Origin: Escherichia phage Baskent_phicoli_1
DNA length: 39,500 bases
Sequence record: PP766721.1
Reading direction: 5' to 3' (one strand)
Position numbers and translations under genes: made by a program. Positions within the stretch are counted from its first letter, which is position 1; each line of letters starts with the position of its first letter. Shown in pieces: positions 5,244 through 38,687 of this stretch. The notes beneath the pieces are model-generated. The model searched no databases, was not told the DNA's origin, and saw only the letters and a list, made by a program, of their open reading frames with translations.

Positions 5244-6293
5244 ATGGCAAACGTTCCGGGTCAGAAAATTGGTACAGACCAAGGTAAAGGCAAATCTAGT
5301 TCCGACGCTCTGGCGTTGTTCCTGAAGGTCTTTGCTGGTGAAGTCCTGACCGCATTCACTCGCCGCTCTGTAACGGCTGACAAGCATATTGTCCGTACCA
5401 TTCAGAACGGTAAGTCTGCTCAGTTCCCGGTCATGGGTCGCACCTCTGGTGTGTATCTGGCTCCCGGTGAGCGACTGTCCGATAAGCGTAAAGGTATCAA
5501 ACATACCGAGAAAGTGATTACCATTGATGGTCTGCTGACTGCCGATGTGATGATTTTCGACATTGAAGACGCGATGAACCACTATGACGTGGCTGGCGAG
5601 TACTCCAACCAGTTGGGTGAAGCTCTGGCTATCGCTGCTGATGGTGCGGTTCTGGCTGAAATGGCTCTCCTGTGTAACCTCCCGGCCGCATCCAACGAGA
5701 ATATTGCCGGTCTGGGCACTGCGTCAGTACTTGAAGTTGGTACTAAAGCCGACCTGAACACTCCGGCTAAGCTGGGTGAAGCAATCATCGGTCAACTGAC
5801 CATTGCTCGTGCGAAGCTGACCTCCAACTACGTTCCTGCTGGCGACCGATACTTCTACACCACGCCGGACAACTACTCTGCAATCCTCGCGGCTCTGATG
5901 CCGAACGCTGCTAACTATGCTGCGCTGATTGACCCAGAGACTGGCAACATCCGTAACGTGATGGGCTTCGTTGTTGTTGAGGTCCCGCATCTGGTGCAGG
6001 GTGGTGCTGGTGAGACCCGTGGTGACGATGGTATCTCTATCGCCTCCGGTCAGAAACACGCATTCCCGGCGACTGCTGCTGGCGACGTTAAAGTTGCTAT
6101 GGACAACGTTGTGGGTCTGTTCTCTCACCGTTCTGCTGTGGGTACTGTGAAGCTGCGTGACTTGGCGCTGGAACGTGACCGTGACGTCGATGCTCAGGGC
6201 GACCTGATTGTTGGTAAGTACGCTATGGGTCACGGTGGTCTGCGTCCTGAAGCAGCGGGCGCACTGGTTTTCACAGCAGCGTCAGCGGGTTAA
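5244..6293 (+). CDS. gp10A: Major capsid protein 10A
   Basis: 349 aa; LALFLKVFxGEVLTAF, KSAQFPV, KHTEKVITIDGLLTADV, EDAMNHYDV, LMPNAANYAALIDPE, RNVMGF, HRSAVGTVKLRDLALER, KYAMGHGGLRPEAAGA match T7 gp10A. Confidence 0.97.
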   Translation: MANVPGQKIGTDQGKGKSSSDALALFLKVFAGEVLTAFTRRSVTADKHIVRTIQNGKSAQFPVMGRTSGVYLAPGERLSDKRKGIKHTEKVITIDGLLTADVMIFDIEDAMNHYDVAGEYSNQLGEALAIAADGAVLAEMALLCNLPAASNENIAGLGTASVLEVGTKADLNTPAKLGEAIIGQLTIARAKLTSNYVPAGDRYFYTTPDNYSAILAALMPNAANYAALIDPETGNIRNVMGFVVVEVPHLVQGGAGETRGDDGISIASGQKHAFPATAAGDVKVAMDNVVGLFSHRSAVGTVKLRDLALERDRDVDAQGDLIVGKYAMGHGGLRPEAAGALVFTAASAG

Positions 6294-9782: not shown

Positions 9783-9831
9783 AGGGCCTATAGATTTACC
9801 TTAACTATCACTATAGGGGACTATAGGCCCT
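9783..9831 (+). repeat. 11-bp perfect inverted repeat (AGGGCCTATAG / CTATAGGCCCT) enclosing promoter phi13
   Basis: Arms at 9783-9793 and 9821-9831 read directly; promoter core in the 27-nt loop. Confidence 0.8.
9799..9821 (+). promoter_or_regulatory. Phage RNAP promoter (phi13-like), +1 G about 9816
   Basis: TTAACTATCACTATAGGGGA. Confidence 0.75.
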
Positions 9832-9851
9832 TAAGGTTATAAGGAGACTTT

Positions 9852-19403: not shown

Positions 19404-19598
19404 ATGATTGAGTTAGACTTCAAGAATGAGGTCCTTAAAGCCTCTCCTATCGTCGGGACCGCTGCGGCTGATGGTGCCAGTCGGTTCTTCTTCGGACTTA
19501 CACTGAACGAATGGTTCTACGTTGCAGCTATCGCGTACACCGTTGTCCAGATTGGTGTGCTAGTCTACAAAACGATTAAAGGAGGTGGTAAAACATGA
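19404..19598 (+). CDS. gp17.5: Holin (T7 gp17.5 homolog)
   Basis: 64 aa; LDFxNExxKAxPIVGT...FFGLxLNEWFYVAAIAYTVVQIG nearly identical to T7 gp17.5. Confidence 0.92.
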   Translation: MIELDFKNEVLKASPIVGTAAADGASRFFFGLTLNEWFYVAAIAYTVVQIGVLVYKTIKGGGKT

Positions 19599-19858
19599 CG
19601 CAGATGGACTTAGAGAAGTTCCTCTTAATGCTAGATACTGAACGTGCTCGACTCATGCTGAAAGACCTGCGGGATGACTCTAAGCGTTCACCTCAGCTCT
19701 ACAACGCCATTGAGAAGCTGCTTGCTCGTCACAACTTTGTGTTAAGCAAGGTGTCTGTGGACGAGAAGACGCTGGCTGATATGGAGGCCCTGAACGCAGA
19801 GTACGATAAGGTGCTTTCAGCGACTGAGGATAATGACACCGGGTATGGTGTTCAATAA
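19595..19858 (+). CDS. gp18: Terminase small subunit (DNA maturase A), gene 18
   Basis: 87 aa, ATGA-coupled to holin; position and size as T7 gp18 (89 aa). Confidence 0.85.
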   Translation: MTQMDLEKFLLMLDTERARLMLKDLRDDSKRSPQLYNAIEKLLARHNFVLSKVSVDEKTLADMEALNAEYDKVLSATEDNDTGYGVQ

Positions 19859-19860
19859 GT

Positions 19861-19908
19861 GTTAGACTCAAGGTCATTACTATATGTAGTGGCCTTTATG
19901 GTTAACAC
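19861..19908 (+). promoter_or_regulatory. Conserved structured element (putative RNase III processing site, R18.5-like)
   Basis: TAGACTCAAGGTCAT-N11-GTGGCCTTTATGGTTA; same motif recurs at 24457, 29273 and 36452. Confidence 0.55.
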
Positions 19909-19959
19909 TAACTAGTGGAGGAGACTCTACGTGAAATCTGATAAACCGGGAGGGCAACT

Positions 19960-20403
19960 ATGCTCGAATTTTTAAAGAGAGCGGCTCCGTGGTTACTTGC
20001 AGCAGTGATGTTTGCTGGTGGCTACCACACCGCTAACAATAAGTGGGAGGCTAAGATCAATGCAGAATACACCTCGAATCTTAAGGCATCGGAAGATACA
20101 AGGCTTGCTGTCCAAGCTGAAGTCAACAAAGTGTCCAAACGGTTTCAGGACGAAATGTCCTCGCTGGAAGGCAGCACTGATAGGATTATTGCTGACCTTC
20201 AGTCTGACAATAAGCGGCTGCGCATCAGAGTCAAACCAACGAGTGGAACCACGCAAAGTGACGGTCGATGCGTCATTGATGATTACGCCGAACTTGACGA
20301 ACGAGATGCTAAACGTCTTATCGCCATCGGAGTGAAAGGAGACAAGTGGATTAAGGCCCTTCAGGACACTGTGAGAGCCTTGCAGCAAGATAGGGGGGAG
20401 TAA
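19960..20403 (+). CDS. gp18.5: Rz-like i-spanin, gene 18.5
   Basis: 147 aa; N-terminal TM helix, EGSTDRIIxDLxSDNKRLRxRVK and DxRDAKRxxAxxxKGDxWIxALQDT match T7 gp18.5. Confidence 0.9.
   Translation: MLEFLKRAAPWLLAAVMFAGGYHTANNKWEAKINAEYTSNLKASEDTRLAVQAEVNKVSKRFQDEMSSLEGSTDRIIADLQSDNKRLRIRVKPTSGTTQSDGRCVIDDYAELDERDAKRLIAIGVKGDKWIKALQDTVRALQQDRGE
20060..20335 (+). CDS. gp18.7: Rz1-like o-spanin lipoprotein embedded in +1 frame of gene 18.5
   Basis: PRWKxALIGLxL...ISGCASES lipobox and PNLTxEMLNV C-terminus match T7 gp18.7; start at internal ATG 20060 inferred. Confidence 0.7.
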   Translation: MQNTPRILRHRKIQGLLSKLKSTKCPNGFRTKCPRWKAALIGLLLTFSLTISGCASESNQRVEPRKVTVDASLMITPNLTNEMLNVLSPSE

Positions 20404-22789: not shown

Positions 22790-22949
22790 CGCCATAATGG
22801 TAACAATCAACGAAAGTAAGACCTAAGGTCAGTTCATAGCTGACGCTACTCTACTGACCTTAGCTACTGTAGTCAAGGACTTTAGGTAACACCTTAAGAG
22901 AAGCTCACTTAGGGTCATCCTACTTATTGGTCTATCCTAGTGTCGCCTG

Positions 22950-23740: not shown

Positions 23741-23941
23741 GTGCCACATCGAAACGACGGTGAAGCCTAACACTGAAACAGGCTAGCACGGCGACGACAG
23801 CCAATGCGAATGCTCTTTAACAATCTGGATAAACTCTTAATGTGCGCCGATAGCGACTAACTACAGGGTCTTTGAGTCTACATCTGAAGGCCCTGACTGA
23901 TAGTCACTAACATACACAAACAACTTTGAGAGGATATAACT

Positions 23942-24429: not shown

Positions 24430-24456
24430 CTTACTGGCGGGTACTGAGTGATAAAT

Positions 24457-24490
24457 GAGAGGTCATCGACTGATAGGTGGCCTCAAAGAT
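24457..24490 (+). promoter_or_regulatory. Conserved structured element (putative RNase III site, R0.5-like)
   Basis: GAGAGGTCAT-N11-GTGGCCTCAAAGATTA, variant of the AGGTCAT...GTGGCCTT element. Confidence 0.45.
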
Positions 24491-24517
24491 TACCACTTGC
24501 ATTAATAGGAGTTAACT

Positions 24518-25708: not shown

Positions 25709-25730
25709 CTTAACTATCACTATAGGACTC
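25708..25730 (+). promoter_or_regulatory. Phage RNAP promoter immediately upstream of the RNAP gene, +1 G about 25725
   Basis: CTTAACTATCACTATAGGACTC, one or two mismatches to the window consensus, 75 bp before gene 1 ATG. Confidence 0.65.
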
Positions 25731-25799
25731 AAGGTCTAAGACTCCAAGTGAAAGACCAAAGAGACTTTAAGTGAAAGACTAATAACAAGGACTTTAAGT

Positions 25800-28787: not shown

Positions 28788-29258
28788 ATGTTCGGTAAGT
28801 CAAAACTTAAAGCACAAATCAAAGAGTTGAGCATGAAGGTGGCATACTTGGAGCGAGCCATAAAGGTACGGGACTATGACAACGAGAGACTGAAGGCTAA
28901 ACTTGCTGAATCAGAGCGTAAGCGCCTAACGCCACCAGCGGCTGTAACTGTCAAGCGTATGGTCGGCATCAAGTTCAAGGCACTGTTCGACGGTAAGTAT
29001 CAACCGACTGAGTTCAAGACAGGCCCGGGACCATGTGGCAAGACGGTGACGCACTTCACCATAAGTTGGACAGAGCGAAGTATGACCGTCCACCAGCATC
29101 ATACGGATGGCTCTCAGAAGGACTTCGTGTACCGACTGAGCGACATCGACGGTCGAATACAGTATGACTACGAGCAAGTTAAAATCTACGGAGAAGAGGC
29201 CAAACGTGAGTCAGCGCTTCAGGCATTCATGCGGATAGGGCCGCGCATCCTATTCTAA
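28788..29258 (+). CDS. Hypothetical early protein (156 aa), helical/charged N-terminus
   Basis: ORF with GAAGAGG SD; absent from T7 at this position. Confidence 0.6.
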   Translation: MFGKSKLKAQIKELSMKVAYLERAIKVRDYDNERLKAKLAESERKRLTPPAAVTVKRMVGIKFKALFDGKYQPTEFKTGPGPCGKTVTHFTISWTERSMTVHQHHTDGSQKDFVYRLSDIDGRIQYDYEQVKIYGEEAKRESALQAFMRIGPRILF

Positions 29259-29276
29259 ACTATCACTATAGGATTA
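29254..29276 (+). promoter_or_regulatory. Phage RNAP promoter (phi1.1-like), +1 G about 29271
   Basis: TAAACTATCACTATAGGATT. Confidence 0.75.
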
Positions 29277-29318
29277 GACTCAAGGTCATGACTCAAAGTC
29301 GTGGCCTTCATGATTAAC
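29273..29318 (+). promoter_or_regulatory. Conserved structured element (putative RNase III site, R1.1-like)
   Basis: TAGACTCAAGGTCAT-N11-GTGGCCTTCATGATTA. Confidence 0.55.
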
Positions 29319-29366
29319 CCTGTAGCAAAGCTACTACCTAACGTAAACTACTGGAGATTTAACCAC

Positions 29367-29546
29367 ATGTATCAAAACACTATCAACTTCGAGCGCATCC
29401 GTGAACGTCAGCAGACTGAAGGTTACATTCCTAAGGGCCGCAAGCTGAACAAGACTAAACGTGGTGGTGGTATCAAAGGCGCTTTCCGAAACGCTGAAGG
29501 TAAAGACTCTCTGGTCAACCAAGAGAAATACTTCGTAGGAGTGTAA
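29367..29546 (+). CDS. gp1.1: gp1.1-like small basic protein (ORF-track start 29301 lies inside the RNase III-like element; ATG 29367 preferred)
   Basis: KGRKLNKTKR motif as in remembered T7 gp1.1; start choice is inference. Confidence 0.55.
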   Translation: MYQNTINFERIRERQQTEGYIPKGRKLNKTKRGGGIKGAFRNAEGKDSLVNQEKYFVGV

Positions 29547-34467: not shown

Positions 34468-34485
34468 ACTATCACCTTAGGGATG
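34463..34485 (+). promoter_or_regulatory. Degenerate phage promoter-like sequence upstream of gene 4
   Basis: TAAACTATCACCTTAGGGAT: two mismatches in the -4/-3 melting region. Confidence 0.35.
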
Positions 34486-34532
34486 GGACCATAAGTCCTG
34501 TCCCTCTGTTCGCATTTGTGATTAAGGAGTGA

Positions 34533-36236
<1,704 letters not shown>

Positions 36237-36287: not shown

Positions 36288-36452
36288 GTGTTTACGAAAC
36301 TTAAAGCTCGATACCATCGGTTCATGTACAAATGGTGGAGCGATGAAGCAGCCTGCCTGTCGAACATTCTGGGAGACCAGCGGTTCAACTCTGCGGCGTG
36401 GAAGAGAGCTAACCGTAAGTTTATGTATCACTTCTTGCGTACAGACTTCTAG
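36288..36452 (+). CDS. Tentative small protein (54 aa from GTG 36288), C-terminus ...LRTDF
   Basis: GGAGG 9 nt upstream of GTG; ORF-track version starts at TTG 36252; no homolog recognised. Confidence 0.3.
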   Translation: MFTKLKARYHRFMYKWWSDEAACLSNILGDQRFNSAAWKRANRKFMYHFLRTDF

Positions 36453-36497
36453 GTCTAGACTCAAGGTCATTCACATCGAGTGGCCTTTATGATTAGA
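36452..36497 (+). promoter_or_regulatory. Conserved structured element (putative RNase III site, R4.7-like) upstream of gene 5
   Basis: TAGACTCAAGGTCAT-N10-GTGGCCTTTATGATTA. Confidence 0.55.
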
Positions 36498-36515
36498 CTA
36501 AACGGAGGATTAACC

Positions 36516-38687
36516 ATGTTTGACCTTAAGAGTATCTGGGGTTCTGACATCGAGACCAACGGTCTCCTTGATACAGTCTCCCAGTTTCACTGTGGGGTCC
36601 TGATTAACGCCGAGTCGAATGAGACCCTTAAGTATGGGGTGGCTCCGATGGTCGGTATCGTCGGTGGCTTCAAAGAGTATGTGCGGAAGGTGGAAGAGAT
36701 TGCCGCATCACCTGATGGTATGCTGGTATTCCACAATGGTATCAACTATGACGTCCCTGCTATTGACAAGCTGAAACGTCTGTACTTTGGGAAACGATTT
36801 AACTTCCCGAAACACAAGATGATTGATACCTTGGTTCTGGGACGCTTGATGTATCCCAACATTAAGTTCTCAGACATGGGCGCGGTGAAAGCTGGTCGTC
36901 TGCCACCTAAGATGATGGGACGCCAGTCTCTTGAGGCTTGGGGCTATCGTCTCGGTGAAATGAAGGGTGAGTACAAACACGATTACGTTGCCAAGTGCAA
37001 GGCTGAAGGTATCGAATATAAGTCTGGGGACGAATGGTTGTTCCCGTCTCAGGAGATGCTGGACTATAACGTTCAGGACGTTGTGGTCACATTGGCATTG
37101 TTCAAGAAGTTCCTGACTGACAAGTATTACTTCCAGTCTGAACAGTTCGCCTTCGAACAGATTTATGCGTTGCGTCTGGAACATGATGCTGCGTGGACCT
37201 GTGCGAAGATGGAGCGTAACGGCTATCCGATGAACACAGAGATGGTCGAAGGCTTATATCGTGAACTCACTGTCAAACGTGCGGAGTTGCTGGACAAGCT
37301 GCGCTCGACTTTCGGTAGCTGGTATGCACCAAAGGGTGGCAAGGAGTTCTTCAGGCATCCACGTACAGGTAAGGACCTTCCGAAGTATCCGAGAGTCGTG
37401 TATCCTAAGGTCGGTGGCATCTTTAAGAAGCCGAAGAACAAAGCTCAACGCTTAGGTCTTGAACCTTGTGAACGCGATACGCGAGACACGATGGAAGGAG
37501 CACCATTCACGCCAATCACTTACGTTGAGTTTAATCCGGGAAGCGGAGACCACTTAGCGAAAGTCTTGATGGAGCGTGGCTGGGAGCCTGTGGACTTCAC
37601 TGACACTGGGAAACCTGTAGTCGATGACGAGACGTTGGAACACGTTAAGTTACCAGACGCAGAGGCTCAGGCTTGCGTAGAGCTGGTCCGTGAGTATCTG
37701 GTAGTCCAGAAGCGCATCGGGCAGGCTGCTGAAGGTAAGAACGCTTGGTTGAAACTTGTAGGTCCAGACGGACGTATGCACGGTTCAATCAACCCTTGTG
37801 GAGCAGTAACCGGACGTGCGACCCATAGTTCACCAAACATGGCTCAGGTCCCGGCTAACGGTGCTCCGTATGGTGAGACTTGCCGTGGTGCTTTCGGTGC
37901 AGCGTGGAACAAGAAGGACGGTAAGCCAGACCCTTGGATTCAAGTAGGTGTGGACGCCTCAGGTCTTGAGCTTCGTTGTCTGGGGAACCGAGCGGCTCCG
38001 TTTGATGGTGGAGATTATGCGAAGACTGTGGTCGAAGGTGACATCCACTGGGCCAACGCAGTCAACGCTGGGTTAGCACCTAACGTCCCACGCGACAAGT
38101 CGAGCCACGACCACGATGCTTTCCGTAACAACGCTAAGACGTTCATCTATGCGTTCCTGTATGGTGCAGGGGCAGCTAAGATTGGACTGATAGTCGGCGG
38201 TGGTAAGAAGGAAGGCGCGGCCCTGATGAAGAAATTCATTGAGGGTACACCAGCCATCAAGGATCTGCGAGAGGCTGTGCAGAACACGCTCATCTCAGAG
38301 TCGAAGTGGGTAGATGGTGAGAACATCGTGAAGTGGAAACGTCGCTGGCTGAAAGGTCTGGATGGTCGCCGCATTCACATCCGGTCCCCACACTCAGCAC
38401 TTAACGCCCTACTTCAGGGTGATGGTGCGGTAGTCTGTAAGCACTGGATTGTCGAGACCGAGCGTATGCTCGAAGAGGCCGGGTATGTCCACGGCTGGGA
38501 AGGAGACTTCGCGTACATGGCTTGGGTTCACGATGAGCTACAGATTGCGTGTCGTACTCAGGAGATTGCCGAAGAAGTCGTCAAGATTGCTCAACTTGCT
38601 ATGCGTAAGGTGGGTGAGTTCTATAACTTTAAATGTGTCCTTGATACCGAAGGTAAGATTGGACCAACGTGGAAGGAGTGTCACTAA
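36516..38687 (+). CDS. gp5: DNA polymerase, gene 5 (start moved to ATG 36516 with GGAGG SD; ORF-track start 36480 lies in the upstream element)
   Basis: DIExNxLLxxVxxFHCGV, HNGxxYDVPA, IDTLVLxRL, LEAWGYRLGEMKGEY, DYNVQDVVVT, thioredoxin-binding-loop-like PKYPRxxxPKVGGIFKKPKNKAQR, AVTGRATH, DASGLELRCL, NAKTFIYxFLYGAG, AYMAWVHDE match T7 gp5. Confidence 0.96.
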   Translation: MFDLKSIWGSDIETNGLLDTVSQFHCGVLINAESNETLKYGVAPMVGIVGGFKEYVRKVEEIAASPDGMLVFHNGINYDVPAIDKLKRLYFGKRFNFPKHKMIDTLVLGRLMYPNIKFSDMGAVKAGRLPPKMMGRQSLEAWGYRLGEMKGEYKHDYVAKCKAEGIEYKSGDEWLFPSQEMLDYNVQDVVVTLALFKKFLTDKYYFQSEQFAFEQIYALRLEHDAAWTCAKMERNGYPMNTEMVEGLYRELTVKRAELLDKLRSTFGSWYAPKGGKEFFRHPRTGKDLPKYPRVVYPKVGGIFKKPKNKAQRLGLEPCERDTRDTMEGAPFTPITYVEFNPGSGDHLAKVLMERGWEPVDFTDTGKPVVDDETLEHVKLPDAEAQACVELVREYLVVQKRIGQAAEGKNAWLKLVGPDGRMHGSINPCGAVTGRATHSSPNMAQVPANGAPYGETCRGAFGAAWNKKDGKPDPWIQVGVDASGLELRCLGNRAAPFDGGDYAKTVVEGDIHWANAVNAGLAPNVPRDKSSHDHDAFRNNAKTFIYAFLYGAGAAKIGLIVGGGKKEGAALMKKFIEGTPAIKDLREAVQNTLISESKWVDGENIVKWKRRWLKGLDGRRIHIRSPHSALNALLQGDGAVVCKHWIVETERMLEEAGYVHGWEGDFAYMAWVHDELQIACRTQEIAEEVVKIAQLAMRKVGEFYNFKCVLDTEGKIGPTWKECH

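Follow-up and report, generated by a model that had tools for sequence, protein, structure and literature searches.

The R1.1 site of phage T7 is a classic substrate of Escherichia coli RNase III (the R1.1 RNA of the Nicholson laboratory), and the T7 kinase gp0.7 phosphorylates and stimulates this enzyme. The early genes of T7 are transcribed by the host polymerase into a polycistronic precursor of about 7,000 nt. RNase III cleaves this RNA at five positions and acts on the middle and late precursors as well (PMC4858673). The strong late sites are R3.8, R4.7, R6.5 and R18.5 (bioRxiv 10.1101/106799). Internal loops confine cleavage to one phosphodiester on one strand, and the 3′ hairpin left behind is protective against 3′-5′ exonucleases; for good reactivity, cut and loop must be at least about 11 bp apart (PMC1540722). 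R0.5 and R1.1 also function as portable sites in other constructs (PMC3643576).

The T7 records NC_001604 and V01146 list no RNase III features. The T7 cleavage positions used here, 890, 1468, 3138, 5887, 6450, 11203, 13892, 18563, 27281 and 36856, are reportedly those of Dunn and Studier (1983). They are corroborated only indirectly. A 28-nt cleavage product of a minimal R1.1 substrate (uR1.1) has been described (PMC1540722), and one listed stem-loop RNA has the upper-stem sequence of R1.1 and ends in ...CCUUUAU (PMC10359600); both fit a cut after UAU. Six T7 sites (R0.3, R0.5, R1.1, R1.3, R4.7 and R18.5) share the core ACTCAAGGTC ... GTGGCCTTTATGAT.

The window, by which we mean the whole 39.5 kb stretch of DNA analysed here, holds in circularly permuted form the genome of a podovirus that belongs to the T7 group and to the genus Kayfunavirus (K1F/EcoDS1-like). 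EcoDS1 and related phages share about 94% DNA identity with it across 16.5 kb, and at the protein level its RNA polymerase is 99% and its large terminase 100% identical to those of K1F. All genes relevant to the elements described below lie on the + strand. The core CACTATAGG marks phage promoters at 1304, 4125, 5131, 9809, 17086, 22438, 25718, 29264 and 30994, which correspond to annotated EcoDS1 promoters. The gp1.1 family gene is followed by that of the dGTPase inhibitor gp1.2 (PHROGs). Near the right genome end, downstream of a phiOR-like promoter, lies an 11-bp inverted repeat, CTAAGGTCAGT ... ACTGACCTTAG (22822-22863, +).

Three places in this genome carry an exact repeat made of two halves. 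The 5′ half, TAGACTCAAGGTCAT, occurs at 19863, 29275 and 36456, on the + strand only. The 3′ half, GTGGCCTTYATGRTTA, lies at 19889, 29301 and 36480, and a variant with three mismatches is found at 24477. When up to three mismatches are allowed, TAGACTCAAGGTCAT has nine matches compared to 1.24 expected, a count that none of 100 shuffles reaches. An earlier note on this DNA had described a hairpin repeat in four copies. Both halves of the motif are present as it claimed. Its start coordinates fall 2-4 nt short of the true ones, and the spacer, given there as 10-11 nt, measures 11, 11 and 9 nt in the three exact copies. All four copies that it named exist (elements A to D in Table 1), yet the total is five: a diverged copy, element E, was absent from its list. 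The conserved core ACUCAAGG(U/C)C ... G(G/U)CCUU(U/C)AUG(A/G), known from T7 sites that were mapped by experiment, is exact in elements A, B and C and partial in D and E.

The 9-mer GACTCAAGG is frequent in its own right, with nine occurrences in the window against 0.48 expected. Outside the elements it is found in the phi10 leader hairpin, at the +1 position of the promoter that precedes gene 1, and within coding DNA, where its three minus-strand sites lie. As candidate elements, these minus-strand half-motifs (2831, 4819 and 30427) were rejected; there is no 3′ half near 2831 or 30427.

For all five elements the minimum-free-energy fold is a two-tier hairpin with an internal loop (z-scores from -2.7 to -5.4). 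Folding of each copy had been proposed as a check, and all four stretches of the earlier list form such a hairpin, at -19.1 to -25.5 kcal/mol. The pairing of AAGGTC with GGCCTT, including a G-U pair, had been recognised correctly and belongs to an upper stem of 9-12 bp. The lower stem had been overlooked. Its sequence varies between copies and its complementarity is kept: GUGUUA/UAACAC, GGUCUA/UAGACU and GGAUUA/UAACCC in the window are different yet complementary.

In element A the lower stem AGUGUU/AACACU is followed by the internal loop and an 11-bp upper stem, AAGGUCAUUAC/GUAGUGGCCUU, with the loop UAUAU; stems and internal loop are the same as in K1F and EcoDS1. The upper stem has 12 bp in element B (AAGGUCAUGACU/AGUCGUGGCCUU), where the first lower-stem base is the +1 G of the promoter (29271). 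In element C it has 10 bp (AAGGUCAUUC/GAGUGGCCUU) and the 3′ loop strand reads UAUGAUU; upper stem and loop strand both equal those of T7 R1.1 (compared with T7 5861-5900). Element D combines the lower stem GAGUG.AUA/UUA.CACUU and a 9-bp upper stem, GAGGUCAUC/GGUGGCCUC, with the internal loop AAAUGA/CAAAGA. Element E pairs AGCGACUA/UAGUCACU in the lower and CAGGGUCUU/AAGGCCCUG in the upper stem, and its internal loop, ACUAC/GACUGAU, is diverged.

To compare the elements with T7, we built a covariance model from the six aligned T7 sites only (R0.3, R0.5, R1.1, R1.3, R4.7 and R18.5), with the two stems as structure, and searched the whole window on both strands with filters off. The best four matches are the four copies of the earlier note and the fifth is element E, all on the + strand. 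As a positive control, the model recovered T7 R6.5, which is outside the training set. Hence, the likeness to T7 R18.5, R1.1, R4.7 and R0.5 that had been proposed holds. It extends to position, since the gene neighbourhoods correspond: PHROGs assigns small terminase and spanin, the gp1.1 family and DNA polymerase to the genes next to the exact copies, and the variant lies between early ORFs, all as had been stated. For elements D and E reactivity is less certain, because their internal loops are diverged and their model scores are low (24.4 and 20.4 bits).

In alignments with T7, the elements appear as local identity peaks of 0.67-0.73 above flanks of 0.3-0.5. Pairwise alignment was uninformative at the junction of genes 4 and 5 because T7 has extra genes there. 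Over stems and internal loop, elements A, B and C are 78-82% alike among themselves compared to 62-76% with their positional counterparts in T7 (L001). This greater likeness could stem from homogenisation within the genome or from a lineage-specific optimum.

Table 1. Elements, predicted cuts, neighbouring genes and related features in the window (leader: distance from the predicted cut to the start codon).
Feature	Position	Strand	Model match (bits; E)	Fold (kcal/mol; z)	Remarks
Small terminase (gp18)	19595-19858	+			PHROGs
Element A	19858..19909	+	19851-19919 (52.7; 9.6e-11)	-23.4; -4.69 (antisense -14.3; -2.04)	T7 R18.5 position, between small terminase stop codon 19856-19858 and spanin ATG 19960
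Predicted scissile bond, element A	19899..19900	+			CCUUUAU/GG, cut after UAU, by alignment to T7 R18.5 and R1.1; leader 60 nt to gp18.5 (ATG 19960)
Rz-like spanin (gp18.5)	19960-20403	+			PHROGs
Element E	23851..23909	+	23845-23918 (20.4; 0.018)	-22.9; -3.26	T7 R0.3 position, 33 nt upstream of ocr-like gene (ATG 23942)
Putative cut, element E	after about U23898	+			By alignment; leader 43 nt to ocr (ATG 23942)
Element D	24446..24498	+	24440-24507 (24.4; 0.0017)	-19.1; -2.69	T7 R0.5 position, variant class, between two small early ORFs downstream of ocr
Putative cut, element D	after about A24487	+			By alignment, less certain; leader 30 nt to small ORF (ATG 24518)
Phage RNA polymerase promoter TCTAAACTATCACTATAGGATTA	29254..29276	+			Identical to annotated EcoDS1 promoter 6034-6056
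Element B	29271..29320	+	29263-29331 (38.3; 4.7e-7)	-25.5; -5.37	T7 R1.1 position, upstream of gp1.1 (ATG 29367)
Predicted cut, element B	after U29311	+			CCUUCAU then GA; leader 55 nt to gp1.1 (ATG 29367)
gp1.1 coding sequence	29367..29546	+			Probable true start; 59 aa, the length of EcoDS1 gp1.1; ORF-track GTG 29301 inside element B
Element C	36452..36499	+	36444-36509 (47.4; 2.2e-9)	-19.4; -3.68	T7 R4.7 position, between gp4.3-like ORF stop codon 36450-36452 and DNA polymerase ATG 36516
Predicted cut, element C	after U36490	+			Leader 25 nt to DNA polymerase (ATG 36516)
DNA polymerase coding sequence	36516..38687	+			Probable true start; 723 aa, the length of EcoDS1 gp5; ORF-track GTG 36480 inside element C
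GACTCAAGG outside the three elements	2831, 4819, 30427	-			
GACTCAAGG outside the three elements	5153, 13644, 25726	+			

The elements are specific to one strand. We searched 80 related loci (1.38 Mb) on both strands, and 283 of 283 model matches lie on the transcribed strand, that of the RNA polymerase gene. The antisense folds of all five elements are 2-9 kcal/mol weaker and have weaker z-scores, as the conserved G-U pairs of the upper stem, which become A-C mismatches there, would lead one to expect.

Covariation in relatives, another check that had been suggested, supports both stems. The alignment draws on the window, T7, K1F, EcoDS1 and 23 other loci and comprises 110 distinct sequences. 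Standard pairs fill 94.1% of the pair cells, a value somewhat inflated by fitting the alignment to the model, versus 27-48% in controls whose 3′ partners were slid along by 1-3 columns. Changes on both sides occur in 12 of the 16 pairs, with 233 compensatory cells versus 26-42 in the slid controls, and none of 500 shuffles reaches the observed covariation score. The slid-partner control is subject to the same fit; we therefore argue that inflation by fitting is not the whole effect.

Copies upstream of gene 19 in relatives carry the upper stems GGUCAU/GUGGCC, GGCCAC/GUGGUC and GGUUCUCC/GGAGCC, and the lower stems GUGUUA/UAACAC and GAUAGAAUA/UAUUUUAUC. Most of the K1F-like relatives searched have the class of element D in their early region, where GGUCAU/GUGGCC covaries to GGCCAC/GUGGUC. 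The class of element E also occurs in K1F (L004:702) and in two further loci (L125:845 and L131:1228). Among K1F-like phages, the class at the R0.3 position keeps the loop ACUAC/GACUGAU and the class at the R0.5 position keeps GACGAG/CAAAGAU. Both diverged early classes show covariation of their own across these phages.

More distant, largely environmental T7-like contigs (loci L226-L255, with terminases 70-76% identical to that of the window) mostly have no model match upstream of gene 19. The motif may thus be confined to the T7, T3, K1F and K11 lineages, because most of these contigs give no match. When viral contigs were scanned with the loose pattern ACTCAAGG-N16-36-CTTTATG, most matches had arisen by chance in unrelated contigs; real model matches came only from contigs in the size range of T7-like genomes, about 38-44 kb.

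Two ORF-track starts, 29301 and 36480, both GTG, had been suspected to fall inside the repeat. They do lie within hairpins, and the true starts are probably the in-frame ATGs downstream (Table 1), both of which are preceded by Shine-Dalgarno sequences. Between element A and the start of gp18.5 there is also a GTG ORF of 14 codons (19931-19975, +). Its Shine-Dalgarno sequence, GGAGGAG, is strong, and the ORF extends across the gp18.5 ATG in a different frame.

Motif, fold, strand specificity, shared gene positions and covariation all point in one direction: the five elements are very probably RNase III processing signals of a K1F-like T7-group phage, homologous to the mapped T7 sites. In a + strand transcript each element would form a lower stem of 6-8 bp, an internal loop and an upper stem of 9-12 bp, and the two stems together would span about two helical turns. 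The early region with elements E, D and B would be transcribed by the host RNA polymerase, the regions with B, C and A by the phage polymerase. Host RNase III would bind the helix and make a single cut in the internal loop, on its 3′ strand; in elements A, B and C this cut would fall after the U of UAU-G or CAU-G. The upstream mRNA would then end in the upper hairpin and be shielded from 3′-exonucleases, while the downstream mRNA would begin 25-60 nt ahead of its own start codon. By homology with T7, cleavage itself, the exact cut position and the effect on mRNA stability and translation would be those of the T7 sites.

One observation runs against RNase III processing. Between 23300 and 25800 of the window there is no homologue of the gp0.7 protein kinase (best tblastn E-value 6.8), and the largest + strand ORF listed between about 23400 and gene 1 has 142 aa. 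We count this lack of the kinase as a point against reading the elements as RNase III sites. It is conceivable, if unlikely, that the classes at the R0.3 and R0.5 positions are not plain single-cut sites but distinct reactivity classes that tune early mRNA in phages without gp0.7. If true, they might, for example, bind without cleavage, be cleaved on both strands or react with altered kinetics.

The hairpins might also be structured RNA that RNase III does not cut, particularly elements D and E, whose internal loops are unlike the T7 consensus and whose model scores are weak. They could stabilise 3′ ends made by another nuclease, serve as sites where RNase III only binds, or regulate translation of the downstream gene. 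Motifs that permit RNase III binding but block cleavage exist (PMC1540722). However, elements A, B and C have the upper stem and the cleaved-strand sequence of T7 sites whose cleavage is experimental, and no hairpin extends over a Shine-Dalgarno sequence or a start codon. We consider uncut RNA structures highly improbable overall, though less so for D and E. If the repeat acted at the DNA level, with an incidental RNA fold, it might be a mobile repeat, a site where a protein binds, or a sequence of recombination or of module junctions. Gene conversion could explain why the copies resemble each other (78-82%) more than their T7 counterparts (62-76%), and GACTCAAGG is over-represented, minus strand included. 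Yet complete elements occur on the transcribed strand only (283 of 283), and the conserved G-U pairs turn into A-C mismatches on the opposite strand. Moreover, compensatory changes keep the pairing and not the sequence, and the lower stems vary but stay complementary. There is very little left to recommend a DNA-level repeat.

Stable intergenic hairpins could, finally, be transcription terminators or pause sites, or the elements could harbour host sigma-70 promoters; the T7 record has minor E. coli promoters B, C and E near R0.5, R1 and R18.5. The hairpins are not followed by a U-run, though, but by AUGAUUA or similar. In a consensus scan of the element A region only, no sigma-70-like site was found, and the sole terminator-like match (19952-19965) lies outside the element. 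The homologous T7 elements are read through by transcription, which also speaks against termination. To terminators, pause sites and promoters we give next to no weight.

The same elements occur in the closest relatives, at 36441, 12848, 5561, 1761 and 702 in K1F (DQ111067) and at 35931, 13036, 6043 and 1485 in EcoDS1 (EU734172). Their stems and internal loops are identical or nearly identical to those of the window, with small differences in the loops and in element D. The database records of K1F and EcoDS1 do not annotate the hairpins and list no RNase III features. An Rfam scan of the whole window gave 0 matches at or above any family's gathering threshold, and Rfam appears to have no model for these phage sites. 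No specific report of RNase III sites in K1F-like phages turned up in the literature searched, which did not include Li et al. 1993, the K1F genome paper or the T7 refactoring paper.

The RNase III site class itself is textbook knowledge, and the sites in the window are further instances. They leave our understanding of phage biology unchanged, and their main practical value is annotation. Knowing them moves the start of gp1.1 to 29367 and that of DNA polymerase to 36516, which corrects both genes, and makes the set of mature mRNAs of K1F-like phages predictable. Several RNase III sites of distinct sequence could also serve as insulators in synthetic constructs, like T7 R0.5 and R1.1.

How far the correspondence with T7 goes differs between sites. 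Ten R-site positions were checked in T7, whereas the window has five detectable sites. The positions of R1, R1.3, R6.5 and R13 have neither a model match nor a significant fold in the window. As members of the family we rejected three leaders, all of them without model match: the one after the gene 1 promoter (25726-25799, z -0.5), the phi6.5 leader (1311-1377, z 0.0) and the phi13 leader (9816-9851, z +0.8). T7 carries the gp0.7 kinase and the phage of the window does not. Apical loops and lower-stem sequences are not the same in both phages, and the elements at the R0.3 and R0.5 positions, E and D, have internal loops diverged from those of T7.

T7 R3.8 and the phi10 leader represent another type of hairpin, GGGAGACC...GGUUUCCC, whose sequence class differs from the repeat described here. 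Directly after its gene 4 promoter, the window has a hairpin GGGAUGGGAC...GUCCUGUCCC followed by UGUUCGCAUU, as in T7 R3.8. The covariance model does not pick up this hairpin. It reads GGGAUGGGAC-CAUAA-GUCCUGUCCC at 34479-34520 (+), and the segment 34470-34535 folds at -22.9 kcal/mol (z -2.55); the UGUUCGCAUU that follows aligns with the phi3.8/R3.8 region of T7. The hairpin is possibly an additional RNase III site that belongs to another sequence class.

The five elements share with the T7 R-sites the two-tier hairpin with internal loop, the orientation on the transcribed strand and the gene neighbourhoods. ACUCAAGGUC...GUGGCCUUUAUGAU is common to T7 R0.5, R1.1, R4.7 and R18.5 and to the window elements. 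In an identity check against T7 R1.1, aimed at the proximal-box and distal-box base pairs beside the cut, element C is equal in 10 of 10 upper-stem pairs and A and B in the first eight, while D and E differ. Element D occupies the equivalent of the R0.5 place, which in T7 follows the second early ORF. Like R4.7, element C comes after the gene 4 block, but since the window lacks genes 4.5 and 4.7, the next gene after it is gene 5. Element A lies between gp18 and gp18.5, just as R18.5 lies between genes 18 and 18.5. T7 R1.1 directly follows the promoter phi1.1A and precedes gene 1.1; element B likewise begins at the +1 of a phage promoter and stands before gp1.1 and gp1.2.
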